Below, piece by piece: positions 1-6,636 of a stretch of 64,000 nt of DNA. Source of the stretch: Octopus vulgaris (taxonomy: Eukaryota); the NCBI GenBank assembly GCA_951406725.2, contig OX597814.1, forward strand, positions 181,226,001 through 181,290,000, written 5' to 3'. A model generated the notes under the pieces. It ran no database searches, was not told the origin of the DNA, and saw only the letters and a program-made list of their open reading frames with translations. The translations under genes were made by a program, and so were the position numbers. Every line of letters begins with the position of its first letter. Position 1 is the stretch's first letter.

Positions 1-590
1 TACTGGAGCAGTCCATAGCTAACCATGCAGCCAGATAACCAATCCACTTAATTTTTAATTCATTGATCTATCAAAGCTCCCAATACACCTTTTACACTAA
101 CTACACAATACCAAATTAGTCATGAATAGAGAACACTTCTTGTACTCTACTGCTGAATTTTTGGGAAAATGGCCATCATTCAAGCCCATCCAATAAGAAA
201 AATTCTAAAAATGTATCAAATTACAAAACAATTAAACAGCATAAATTTATAAAGCCACAAAATTTTAATTTTAACAATAAAGAATTTTTTTTAAATGACA
301 GACATGAAATATCAGATGATTTTTTTCCCACTAAAGCACTTAGTAAAATGACAAAGACTTTATTTTTTAAACTAAAAGTGTTTGATATTGATAAGCATGT
401 GTCAAGTAATTGTTTTTGTTATTATCACTACTAACTATCAAAGTACTTAGAATGCTTTGTAAACATTATTCCATTTCATATCAATAGCAATATTAAGTAT
501 ACTGCTTCAAGTTTTGGTACCAAGAGTAACTATGTACAATTCAGATTAGCAAATCTGATTATGAAAAGAAAATATTATCTACAACATTGA

Positions 591-715
591 TTTCAAATTT
601 TGACACAAGGCCAGCAATTTCAGGGTAGGAGGTAAGTCAGTTACATCAACTCCATTATGCAACTCATACTTATTTTATTGACTCTGAAAGGAAGAAAGGC
701 AAAGTCATACTCTAG
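591..715 (-). mobile_element. Short SINE family (family 2), 3' part
   Basis: The reverse complement contains gaaattgctggccttgtgtcaaaatttgaaa, matching the plus-strand copy end at ~34100-34130 (gaaattgctggccttgtgacaaaatttaaaa). That copy carries a tRNA B-box-like gggttcaaatcc. Confidence 0.6.
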
Positions 716-1181
716 CACCAGTGATTTCAGAAGTGACTGATAAACTGTAAGATAATGGTCTTGAAACTAAGTCTGAATTCCAAGATACAGATGAAATTAT
801 TACTGCTAAATTGTACCATTTTAATGAATAGAATGAAGTACTTTTATGTACTTTACATTAAAAATCATTAAAAAATCCCCCATAAAAATATGAATTGCAC
901 ACCAAAAAAAAAAAGTGTATCAATGGTTACATTTTACATTAGCATAAACTAATCATAAAGAGATCAGTTATACATGATTAATCACTATCTAATTTTCTGG
1001 CCATTTAATTATATTAAATTACACATTGATACTTGTATAACTGGATTTATATCAATAACATATCTATTCATTCTTAATACGTTCTGGCAGATTCAAGCAT
1101 GAATGTCTAATTGTTGTTGTTTGTTGTCATCAGAGAACACATCCTCCCTTCATATGATGCATGTTCATCAATATAAGGGAA

Positions 1182-1230
1182 CATTGAGACACTGCAGGGT
1201 TTCAACCTTATTGTGTCTTGTTAGTTAAAG
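1182..1230 (-). ncRNA. Degenerate type I hammerhead ribozyme
   Basis: Minus strand reads CUUUAA-CUAACAA-GACACAAUAAGGUU-GAAA-CCCUGCAGUG-UC-UCAAUG. The CUGANGA core has two G>A changes; GAAA, a near-palindromic stem III and the GUC site are retained. Confidence 0.6.
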
Positions 1231-1513
1231 CCTAGCAGACTGATGAATCTAACAAGAGTACAAGTTCTTGTTTATAGAAATCAACAGACAAATTATTTGC
1301 TGATGCCTGCCAAACAGATAATAATTTATGGGGTACACACAGAGAATATATTAAGAATGAATAGTTACATTATTGCTTAGATTCCTACTGTTCTGCATGC
1401 ACCTAATAAATTACTATCTGTTAATGATAGCATTCATCAGCAAGTAATTTGTTTGAAGATTTCTATATACAAGAGTTCATGATTTTGTTAGATTCATCAG
1501 TCCAGTAGGGTAG

Positions 1514-1564
1514 CTTTGACTGAAGTGACATGTTATAAGGTTGAAATATTGCAGTGTCTCAAAG
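1514..1564 (+). ncRNA. Degenerate type I hammerhead ribozyme
   Basis: CUUUGA-CUGAAGU-GACAUGUUAUAAGGUU-GAAA-UAUUGCAGUG-UC-UCAAAG. Perfect 6-bp stem I, GAC/GUU stem II, self-complementary stem III (with G.U pairs) and a GUC site. One core substitution (A9>U). Confidence 0.7.
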
Positions 1565-4363
1565 TATCCTTACACCAGTGAATGCGTTATAAACATGTAT
1601 CATCCAAAAGAGATGTTCTCCAATGCAAATAAATAAGTAAAGAATTCATAAATAAATATAAATGCAATCAGACATAGTCAAATTTGCCAAAATGTATAAG
1701 AATGAAAAGAGATATTATTTAGACTCTCACTGTTCTGCATGCAACTTATGGATTTATTTCCTTATTCGTCTAAAGGTGAATATCATATTAAAACATTACA
1801 ATTTTAAGAGCTAATGAATAAGAGACATTTTAGAGATTCAGAGAATTTTCACTTGGAATTAATACAGTTCTTTGTTAATTTAAAAATTTACAGATGACTA
1901 TATTCCATTTAACAAATCAGGTCATAAACATTTTCAGATATATTTTATAATATGTTATTTTGTTTAGACCCCAAAATTTTTTTTATTCTAAGCAGATTAA
2001 AAAAAAAAGAAAGAAATGATTAGCACTTATAAAATTTCTACAATTATTCTTATACCTATTGCAAAAGCCGTTGCACAAAAAATATTGCATATACTTACAA
2101 GGGAGATAATTTCCTTTTTTTTAATGCATGACATGTTTCAATGTGCTCAGAAAATGCAAAGGAAAATCTTAGTACAAACTTCATGATTTCTATTAGATAT
2201 ATCCCCTTAATAATGAGGTAACTTTTGATAAGCAACACGCTAATATTCAAGCCTATTTATCTATTTAATAAAGAAAAATTTACATCTCATAATAAAATTC
2301 CATTGCTTCAATGTTTTTATGTTTTACAAAAGTAATTTCCATTCATACAATTTGAAAAATCTTGGCAGATCCCTGTCACATAAATTTCAAGAGAAGAAAC
2401 CAAACAAAAACAATATTTGATTTTTAAGCTAAGGTTAAAGCTTATGGTCCATAGTAAATTTTAAAAATAAATACACAATACCCATGACTTACGGCCTTAT
2501 AAACTAGGGGAAGTGGTCAAACAAATAAGTTATGAATATATTACGTCATAAAACTGCATAACAATTATAGCTCTGAGGAAGCTGTGAGGTGATGCAAAAG
2601 CACCCAGCTACAAGTGCATTGCATCTTATAGCAGAAACAGCTGCAAACTAATTAATTTCACTGCATAATTTCCTGTTCCTTCGTCCTTTATTTCATTTCA
2701 TAAAAATGAATACATAGATGGAATTTTAAACAGTATTAGCAAATTCTTTGTGTTGTGTACATCGTTCTGAGATTTACAAAGCAGTTTTTCCACATATTCC
2801 TCATCTCAAGAAATAGTCAATAAGCCAGATCTTTTTTGGTATATCAATTACACAGCAATAATCATCTGTACATAAGTTTTTAGAAATTTTTCTTTTGTCC
2901 AGCTAGCATAAATAGTAAAATGTACCAAATTTTTGCAGCAGCTAATGTCAACAACATCTAGTTGCTTTATATAGTAACTTACTCAGTTTCCAATATCTTA
3001 CATGCATCTGTATCATAAATGCTTGACATGCATTTAAAAAAGCAGTAATAAAGATGTAGTTACAAAATGGCCCTCTCCACTCATTAATCAACACCTAACA
3101 TAATTTAGGTTCATATTCACTAATTTTGAGATATATAGAAATTGAATTTTATGTACTTCAAATATATATGATTGTCATTACAAAAATGTATATTTTCATG
3201 CTTCCCTATATCATAGTATCTCATCATCTTTCTGAGGTCTAGTTTAAATATTTCTAATTGCATAAATAGTTTCATATAAGTTAAATTGACTCATCTACAT
3301 AAGGACAGCAATGCCATGTCCTTTTTCAATGCAGTAACATCAATTTGAGTTTCATATGACACTCCACTTCTTACAGTTCAGTTGTCCAGTTTTATCTTCA
3401 CTGCCAATCTTCTCAAAAATTTTCTCTTTTTAATTTGTTTGTTACTTCATACCTTCTAACCAACAAGCATGCCAATAATCAGTGTTTTTATTAGCCACAG
3501 ATCATAACTAAACTAATTTTCTCTCACTCACAAATATATAAGTAAAAATAAAAAGTCATCTGTTATCAAGAGGTTTATAATTGCATAATGGTAAGTAATT
3601 TTTGCATTCTGAAGGAAAAAAGATGAAGGTAGGTTTTTAAACCCAGTTAAGGATTCCTAACATTCAACATAATTTAATTTTTTAAAAATAATGAAAGGAT
3701 GCGAAAATGTTAAATTTCCTACAACAGGTTTCTTTATTCCTAAACATAAATAGCATTTATCTTAAAAGCATTGTGCTTTAACATCTTTAAATGTTATTCA
3801 CAAGCTCGTGGAAACAAAATTAATCAGTAAAGGCTTATTAATCAATCAACTTCCAGAGATAAAGAAGCAGATATATTCCTAAACGTGATTTAAGCTTATC
3901 ACTTGGGAAATAGGGACACTTTTGGTGGACATGAGCGGTATACTCAGTCAAGAGTATCATGTAGGAAGAGAGTAAAAAAGGTCAACTTGTCCTTTTGGAT
4001 ACCACCACACTAAAGAGCAACACAATGGAATTTTAAAAAATACAATAGAAAGAAATAATCTGGAGTAATTTATCAAGGTATTTAGTATCTTCATTACTAA
4101 GATGTTCTTCGCGAGAGAAGGAATTCCAGTCGAGACACTCTACAAGCACCGCATATTAATAAATATCATAATTTTAATAAAAATCATGTGATGCGGATGA
4201 TGAAAGCGATGTAGTAACTACTGATAATAAAGACGATCGTTTCACCTTTGTTTAATGAAATTAACTTAATATTGATGAGCTTTGATAATGCAAAAAAATG
4301 AGACAATTTGCAATCAACGAACGCCAAATCGAATATTGTGCAACAATTTGATTGAGTGTATAG

Positions 4364-4395
<32 letters not shown>

Positions 4396-5536
4396 AATAT
4401 ATAATATACATTAGTGTGAATGAATTTTGGTGAAATCAGATGACAACACTTGGAATGCCTTGTTAAGGAAGATTAGACATGATTCGATAAAATCAAATGA
4501 ATTTGTCCTCAATATAGAATGTACACAAATATATTTAACCCGATTATTATTTCGTTGAAGCAAGAGAGAAATCGATTAGTTCAGCAACTGGGTCAATAAA
4601 CATCCCACTAGCATTTAACCTAAGACCGACCCAGAGACGAAGAACAACGTCCAATCTAAAATATTAGTGAAGCAAAAACATTTTCGAGAATAGAATAAAT
4701 AGAACTTAGTATACATGAGATGGCAATGTAGCAACAGTTGACTTAAAATTAAGTTTGTTAAATTTCTGATATCATTTAATTATGTTGTTCTATAATTAAT
4801 AATGAAAGTAACAAATGTCAGTATACATAACAGCAATCCAGATATTGATTTTCAACAGATGAATAGATTTTGATTAGAAATACCTCAACAGTTTACATTA
4901 GTCACAATATCGAAGGTAAAGGAATGTTATTACATATTTATTGCAATCAAATTCTCAGTGATTTGAACGTGAAATTTATGGAACCATTTGGGGGCGGGGT
5001 TTTATTAGAAAGACATTTGCAATCACTTCATTTAAGAGGAAGAAAAACTAGCAAAATCATAATTAAAAGGTCAAATCAATAAACGGAGCTATAATTTAAT
5101 AAAAGAAGTATACAGTTCGGTGTTCTAATTTCTTGTAAAAGAAATACAATCATTTTTAATTCAATAGAAAAAAATGGGAGTGATACTAATAAACATATTC
5201 TTTAGTAGTAGAGAAAATCTCCAACTGAAATAAGATTTCACTTGAAACTATATGAAAAAAAAAATCCCTGAACTGGTTTTTATTTAAACATCTTTTCAGA
5301 TCGTGCAAAATTAAAATCGAAATATCATTTAGTTAAAAAGCAAAGCATAATTTGACATTTTACTAAGAAAGATATGTCTTCTGCATCGGACGGGCGTAAG
5401 AAAAATTACGCTCAACAAAATATCAGTAAATATAATTAAAATTCTATAAATTCAGATTGTTTATTGCTTTCAACAAAACAATAGTAATTGCAGAATGACA
5501 AAAATAAATAAATAAATAAAACGTTTAATCACTTAC

Positions 5537-5564
5537 TTTCGTGAACTGCTGATTTGAGCGCCAT
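5537..5564 (-). CDS. Probable first coding exon of an unidentified minus-strand gene (MALKSAVHE + 1 nt)
   Basis: Minus strand ttcaaaATGGCGCTCAAATCAGCAGTTCACGAAA|gtaagt has a strong start context and a perfect consensus donor, inside the CpG-retaining promoter region. No downstream exon was identified in the window. Confidence 0.65.
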
Positions 5565-5900
5565 TTTGAAGGTTTTTTTCTGAAATCCTCGATCGTAGTA
5601 AAATCTGGAATGCTGGGAAAGTCAATCAAATCATAATCAATATACTGATTACACTTAATACTTATCTTCACGAATTATAACAAATGAAACGCCTACTATT
5701 TCTATCGCATAAAATTGCTTCTAAAATTAAAAGATTATTTTTCAATAAAAGACAAAAATTTATCAATTTTCTTTCAGGCCCGGAACTGTTTTACTGGTTG
5801 ATATCATTGAGTATTTCGTAAACTTCACTTGCCGGAAACCATCGATTTTAGCCGAACTTCATCTTCGTTGTTTTTCAGACTGCGGCGTTTGTCACTATGC
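5558..5900. promoter_or_regulatory. Bidirectional (head-to-head) promoter region
   Basis: Lies between two divergent first exons. A YY1-type GCGCCATTTT overlaps the minus ATG (5558-5567), and ETS-type CCGGAA occurs at ~5781 and ~5832. CpG is locally retained. Confidence 0.55.
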
Positions 5901-6116
5901 GATTACTTGCTACTACTACTACTATTAGTTGTTTTCCTCCTCTTGCTACTACTGCGAGGAGGAAACAGATGCAGTAGTTGCTGGCTTTACAGTTGTTGTT
6001 AGTAAATGGCTGCTGTGTTTTGTTATTCTTTATCTTCGGGCCTTCCGATGTACGATCTGGTCTTTCCCACTCTGGACTTTGTAGAACATGACGTAAAATA
6101 ACTACCATCCTTAAAG

Positions 6117-6141
6117 ATGTCTGGAAAAGCAGAAAAAACAG
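6117..6141 (+). CDS. Probable first-exon coding segment or uORF start of an unidentified plus-strand gene (MSGKAEKT + 1 nt)
   Basis: aaagATGTCTGGAAAAGCAGAAAAAACAG|gtaagc has a strong CAG|GTAAG donor. It is preceded by ~300 nt of relatively GC/CpG-rich leader with (ACT)n. It could be a uORF in a 5' UTR exon. Confidence 0.55.
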
Positions 6142-6636
6142 GTAAGCTTCCGCGATCGGGTAAATAAGAGGATTAAATGTCGAGGACGGAAAAGGTAACG
6201 GAATTGAATGAAGCGTCAAGCAACGGGGATATAATATAAATGATACAAGAATAGTAGTAAATATATGTGTATTTTTTTCACCTGTGTAGATAATTCAAGT
6301 AGTAATATATTGGGTGTATACTGCATAAAGAATACTAATTGACTTCAGCGATGGCAATGAGTGTGAATGTAAATTTCGAAATCCTATCTCCACTGACTAA
6401 TGCACACTTACACGCACTCACAAATATACATTCATACTTATGTGTGTACGTGTATCTTTGTATATATAATGAATTCAATATAGTGTGAAAATATATATGT
6501 AAAAAAAAAAGAAATTGCTCGCTTATTGGGAGTGGCTCAGGTTTTGTTTTATGATGAACTGCTAAAATTTAGTTTGTTTAGAAATATATTTAAGTTTGAG
6601 CCAACTGTACTTACTCATTAAGGACTATCCGGAACG

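Follow-up and report, generated by a model that had tools for sequence, protein, structure and literature searches.

A foldback in the window (the whole 64-kb stretch of Octopus vulgaris DNA analysed here) carries a hammerhead ribozyme motif in each of its two inverted arms, which raises the question of what kind of mobile element it descends from and which enzyme inserted it. Passages of PMC7229834 and PMC7761336 present Penelope-like elements (PLEs) as a strong but unproven candidate partner of animal retrozymes, with no motif that reveals the partner. A retrozyme-type monomer combined with a PLE-specific tail and an inverted head is evidence that bears on which enzyme moves animal retrozymes.

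Layout and ends of the insertion

The insertion spans 1054-1748 and consists of a partial copy in inverted orientation, a unit of 345 bp and a tail of ~29 bp, set between target-site duplications (TSDs; Table 1). The arrangement described in an earlier note on this DNA, namely an inverted copy followed by a full unit and the start of the next, proved real, as arm A aligns to the direct copies (1343-1748) with a local alignment score of 216, against a maximum of 50 among 200 shuffles. The span given there, 1061..1756, misplaces the ends, which are bounded at 1054 and 1748 by the TSDs that the note had overlooked. Among 3000 control pairs of sites with this geometry, 10 had a TSD match as good as this one, the search having used 30-base windows picked after the repeat had been seen. 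In inverted orientation the left end corresponds to position 1719, and the right side extends ~29 bp beyond it. A short AGAA microhomology is present at the inversion junction (~1343).

Table 1. Features of the foldback insertion and its flanks (window coordinates).
Feature	Position	Strand	Remarks
Left TSD, 12 bp	1042..1053	+	11/12 identical to right copy
Arm A, inverted, 5'-truncated unit copy	1054..1345	-	3' end leftward, pairs with ~1719
Decayed type I hammerhead, arm A	1182..1230	-	core 1224-1218; predicted cut site 1188/1187
End of preceding unit (partial tandem), ~33 bp	1343..1375	+	starts at inversion junction
Arm B, full non-coding monomer, 345 bp	1376..1720	+	from repeat and alignment analysis
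Second CUGAUGA, strand opposite the hammerhead	1434..1440	-	no full ribozyme around it
Stretch complementary to the 5' catalytic core (1518-1526)	1494..1502	+	identical in both arms
Near-intact type I hammerhead, arm B	1505..1573	+	predicted cut site 1558/1559
Tail, ~29 bp, start of next unit	1721..1748	+	right end only
Right TSD	1749..1760	+	11/12 match to left copy

The two arms are 76% identical (217/284 aligned columns; K2P 0.29), while identity is 49/59 in the direct repeat and 28/33 and 29/34 in the terminal blocks. The direct repeat has a spacing of 342-345, and the locus holds only ~1.2 units in tandem; a tandem-array scan found none. With ~29% GC, the unit contains no tRNA, the insertion contains no ORF of at least 60 aa, and no 3' end of poly(A) or simple repeats is seen at either terminus. 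Palindromy within the unit is not significant, with 13/200 and 19/200 shuffles as good, and a weak profile match at 1173-1374 in part reflects the genuine 33-bp direct copy. The 64-kb window holds no further copy of the unit, a weak AT-rich match at 61.3 kb being equalled by 2 of 100 shuffles.

Hammerhead motifs and RNA structure of the unit

The hammerhead of arm B comprises a 6-bp distal stem (1505-1510/1568-1573), a small internal loop, a 7-bp helix I (1513-1519/1559-1565), a core (1520-1526) in which A9 is the sole change, a 3-bp helix II (1527-1529/1540-1542), GAAA at 1543-1546 and UC at 1557-1558; its helix III has 4 bp, two of them wobbles, and a palindromic tetraloop. In arm A the counterpart lacks G5, G8 and a portion of helix I, so that the proposal of two differently damaged hammerheads holds for both arms with the correction that B is nearly intact and A is the one without G5 and G8. 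The palindromic stem III was also correctly described, a palindromic 12-mer being present in helix III. A motif common to both arms lies at 1184-1207 on the minus strand and 1539-1562 on the plus strand, and none of 100 shuffles gave two matches to it. When either arm's base was accepted in each column, the reconstruction had a helix I of 8 bp (6 of them Watson-Crick), a helix II of 3 bp and a helix III of 4 bp. In line with the claim that the arms jointly rebuild a hammerhead, this is a full type I motif, the reconstruction resting on two decayed copies seen letter by letter. When the columns were shuffled 2000 times, a motif with a helix I of at least 6, a helix II of at least 3 and a helix III of at least 3 bp arose once, and a relaxed rule was satisfied 7 times.

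Canonical hammerheads have a 6-bp helix I and a 4-bp helix II, and the minimal hammerheads of PLEs a helix II of 7-8 bp, a helix I of 4-5 bp, an unpaired base after A9 and a G10.1-C11.1 pair (PMC4209133, in part). The motif of the unit shares type I topology, a palindromic helix III and opposite-strand pairs 100-700 bp apart with the minimal PLE form as described in passages of that paper, but differs from it in a 3-bp helix II that starts with G-U, a 6-7-bp helix I with an internal loop and a distal stem, and a 4-bp helix III. Judged by its letters, it looks more like the canonical type than like the minimal Penelope type, and with 4 bp in helix III a dimer may be unnecessary for the predicted ribozyme. 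In both arms helix II opens with G-U instead of the usual G10.1-C11.1, and this weak helix II makes the canonical call less clean.

Neither arm was matched by the Rfam hammerhead models at E<=10 (region 1000-1800), and across the whole window at E<=1 no hammerhead family occurred in 148 rows, nearly all of which were microsatellite or hairpin look-alikes. A motif scan gave 0 matches in viral contigs and 0 in prokaryote genomes; 2 matches in metagenomes were set aside as chance, with nothing alike beyond the motif itself. The search for published papers containing the helix III motif returned 0, as did a search of one supplement of the O. vulgaris repeat paper (PMC13282606). A further hammerhead of PLE type, near-intact, with a long helix II and a short palindromic helix III, is found at 21215-21275 on the minus strand, in a ~420-bp fragment inside a TA microsatellite; the Rfam hammerhead models gave no match to 21050-21440 at E<=10. 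As the earlier note had held, it is unrelated to the unit: likeness is limited to core letters, with a best score of 40, which 3 of 100 shuffles also attained in one of the four comparisons, and no BLAST match.

The stretch at 1494-1502 reads CUGAUGA on the opposite strand, and two such motifs (CUGANGA) on one strand occurred in 6 of 2000 shuffles. Descriptors of type I and type III hammerheads had 0 matches on the antisense strand, even when the rules were relaxed and the base of either arm was accepted. The simpler reading of 1494-1502 is a possible blocking hairpin or rod pairing rather than an antisense ribozyme. Self-blocking is known in plant retrozymes and viroids, mostly not in animal retrozymes (PMC7229834, in part). 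Folded as a circle, the unit is not clearly unusual, the minimum free energy having a z-score of -0.3 for B and of -1.9 and -2.2 for A (100 shuffles each). Double changes fall at 6 of 57 consensus pairs in a comparison of two sequences only. In the region 1401-1452, a stem of ~1406-1415 with 1443-1452 shows one compensatory pair change between the arms, which hints at former RNA structure outside the hammerhead.

A many-copy family in sequencing-run contigs

Contigs from 4 of 24 listed runs were placed on 1-3200 at 80% likeness. Their summed depth, which indicates many copies and is not a copy number, is 800-2300 per bin in arm A and 210-340 across the greater part of arm B, against 16-22 in the flanks; at base 1275 it reaches 5434 and 4395 in the DNA runs of two species. 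Among the joints listed, 1326->1053 and 1337->1051 each imply a 307-bp monomer, and their bridging letters match the reverse complement of the start of B at 23/33 and 17/20, respectively. Because both joints give 307 bp, the unit closes head-to-tail elsewhere and the 345 bp of B include local extra sequence. The period of 345 proposed earlier is thus valid as the local spacing, whereas other genomic copies close at ~307 on arm-A coordinates.

Joints between opposite strands were found at varied places (1061/1494, 1111/1384 and 1114/1345, among those listed), and the tail sequence runs on into the body of the unit in both arms as well as in at least two listed joints from other loci. Compared with 1264-1330 and 1053-1100, the hammerhead part is covered at lower depth. 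Internally deleted copies that skip the hammerhead part (1096-1238) are seen as joints 1096->1238 and 1092->1266 in contigs of both species, and many family members may therefore lack the ribozyme.

In organism E, the whole insertion is contained in two long contigs with 40 differences over 656-1375 and 71 over 1349-2681, i.e. ~5-6%. If the arms were identical at insertion, the insertion would be roughly five times older than the split from organism E. Other repeats also lie in the window: a SINE-like repeat at 586-707 has an extremely high copy number, with summed depth of up to ~650,000, and decayed LINE remnants at 13650-18650 and 23500-27100 have RT-like and endonuclease-like frames in their translations, some of them split by long microsatellites.

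Origin of the insertion and its host context

We consider the locus to be probably, though short of a firm assignment, a fossil non-autonomous retrozyme-like retroelement that was inserted by Penelope-like (PLE) machinery. We infer cleavage, circularisation and a PLE as the partner enzyme in the following mechanism: tandem copies of the unit would have been transcribed, and the hammerhead would have cut the transcripts to monomers, which may have circularised; a PLE reverse transcriptase/endonuclease would have started from two RNA sites close to each other, which would explain the ~29-base end offset; on one side reverse transcription would have continued beyond a full round of the unit, and on the other it would have ended early; and the two cDNAs would have been joined at microhomology into the foldback. 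The polarity of the hammerheads places both 3' ends outward, as the PLE insertion layout needs, and the Penelope-type layout is strengthened by the tail, the TSD, these outward 3' ends and the variable inversion points of other copies. Counting against this explanation, the tail of ~29 bp is just below the quoted 30-40 bp. The copy at 1054-1748 is now probably inactive.

The proposal joins two known systems, retrozymes and PLE insertion, which together explain the locus well. Animal non-LTR retrozymes have monomers of 150-450 bp (350-390 bp in mussel), low GC, a type I hammerhead, tandem copies and TSDs of more than 4 bp (Cervera and de la Pena 2020, PMC7229834, in part). They are further marked by the absence of LTR, PBS and PPT, by canonical helix sizes and loop 1-loop 2 contacts in the hammerhead, by a highly self-paired monomer, and by self-cleavage with abundant circular RNA. 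The unit resembles those described there in its non-coding monomer, GC below 50%, TSD (here 11/12 bp) and head-to-tail copies, and likewise in its type I hammerhead, which has a helix I of 6-7 bp and a palindromic loop III. It departs from them in the inverted, truncated head and the tail of the insertion (the words 'inverted' and 'truncated' being absent from the main text of that paper), in a longer helix III of 4 bp and a weaker helix II, and in the age and decay of the copy. In PLE insertions, in turn, a partial tandem is accompanied by a neighbouring inverted copy with a truncated 5' end, and one end carries a tail of 30-40 bp (Craig et al. 2021, PMC8557442, in part); the tail, attributed to two reverse-transcription start sites, is called unique to PLEs in passages of Frangieh et al. 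2024 (PMC11167929), which also report that hammerhead cleavage is not needed for PLE insertion in vitro. As in the insertions of these two papers, the locus has the partial tandem, the inverted 5'-truncated copy, the one-end extension and a sense-strand hammerhead, but it differs from them in having no RT/GIY-YIG ORF and a ~310-345-bp unit that closes on itself. Non-autonomous partners of PLEs with head-to-tail copies are described for the Chlamys elements (MRC1), most of which are without canonical hammerheads (PMC8557442 and PMC11167929, in part).

In the alternative that the earlier note favoured, the pieces would be stumps, truncated at the 5' end, of a pLTR that carried the hammerhead and belonged to an ordinary autonomous PLE, and they would have been inserted as inverted and tandem fragments. 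The layout is that of a textbook PLE insertion, to which extent the note's claim of a PLE-typical arrangement stands; PLEs make up 6.83% of the O. vulgaris genome according to passages of PMC13282606, and opposite-strand hammerhead pairs 100-700 bp apart are taken as probable truncated PLEs in passages of PMC4209133. A simple pLTR of a coding PLE does not fit, however, since the unit closes at ~307-345 bp with no space for an ORF and its canonical-like hammerhead is without the features of the minimal PLE form, namely a helix II of 7-8 bp, a helix I of 4-5 bp and an extra base after A9. No ORF for a PLE reverse transcriptase or GIY-YIG endonuclease is present in the insertion, and the listed joints self-close. 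We regard such stumps as an unlikely origin. If a LINE (RTE, CR1 and similar) had moved a retrozyme- or satellite-like repeat, the inversion would be due to twin priming and the end offset to chance. The window is rich in LINE remnants, this route would accommodate both the TSD and the inversion, LINEs are left open as retrozyme partners in parts of PMC7229834, and twin priming can yield inverted, TSD-flanked insertions (PMC2837659, in part). Against a LINE, the termini have no poly(A) or simple repeat and the end offset is near the size of a PLE tail. Moreover, the same 3' part of the unit is found in both arms, whereas twin priming normally inverts a non-overlapping 5' part. We judge mobilisation by a LINE to be quite improbable.

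An endogenised viroid-like circle with hammerheads in both polarities would account for the two CUGAUGA motifs on the opposite strand of B (6/2000 shuffles), after the first of which both arms have a hairpin and GAAA-UC, in a part of arm A that has the highest depth. That strand has, however, 0 type I or III hammerheads (in only two decayed copies, which may hide one), and the first motif is explicable as the complement of the sense core or as a stem with 1383-1412, making a viroid-like origin highly improbable. The long inverted arms between TSDs would also suit a foldback DNA transposon (MITE) with long terminal inverted repeats, the alternative named in the earlier note; TSDs are indeed present, but the terminal inverted repeats are not flush. 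The inverted match ends ~29 bp before the right TSD, the left end pairing with 1719 and not with 1748; a direct partial tandem occupies the centre, there is one hammerhead per arm, inversion points vary between copies, and copies are joined head-to-tail. Because the ends are offset by the tail rather than formed by flush inverted repeats, we reject a MITE, the probability of which we rate as next to nil.

Beyond the retrozyme-like fossil inserted by PLE machinery, one may tentatively, and with considerable doubt, envisage a cephalopod retrozyme family in which hundreds of insertions have the Penelope-specific tail and inverted head, mobilised by PLEs from circular RNA, with an anti-core hairpin silencing the ribozyme in the circle; such a family would amount to direct genomic evidence of PLE mobilisation. 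A further extension, in which the opposite strand once held a second ribozyme and the family is a fossil viroid-like RNA, is very far from probable. The many-copy family makes the link between PLEs and retrozymes countable. The literature covered contained no report of a cephalopod retrozyme (the supplement of PMC7229834, which may list one, lies outside this coverage) and no paper tying retrozyme insertions to PLE tails; 'hammerhead', 'ribozyme' and 'retrozyme' are all absent from the main text of the O. vulgaris repeat annotation (PMC13282606), as far as the parts covered go.

The earlier note also saw in the foldback a possible ADAR or Dicer substrate within an intron of a minus-strand gene. 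The imperfect duplex of ~290 bp that had been predicted is possible, as the minus-strand RNA folds at -261 kcal/mol against -147 ± 6 kcal/mol for 20 shuffles; the longest unbroken duplex is 18 bp, or 20 bp with G-U pairs on the minus strand. Nothing in the sequence suggests selection for dsRNA, because identity between the inverted arms is not above that of the direct repeat, and the foldback is probably a by-product of insertion, its potential dsRNA being incidental. Contigs of two putative RNA runs have no splice joint among the joints listed and a spectrum of changes like that of the DNA runs; one such contig over 999-1160 has 0 differences, contigs being uninformative on editing or expression since they drop rare variants. 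The fossil locus shows nothing that would indicate a role in the host. A stretch at 2488-2640 that had been considered as an exon was discarded, as every frame contains stops and it overlaps a repeat of very high copy number; the high-copy repeat at 2569-2680 (summed depth ~13,000) superficially resembles a minus-strand exon. The insertion may lie in an intron of the minus-strand gene, as judged from its predicted gene structure: in a CpG-rich region at 5529-6250 on the minus strand, an ATG, nine codons and a GT donor occur at ~5563-5529(-), plausibly the first exon of that gene.
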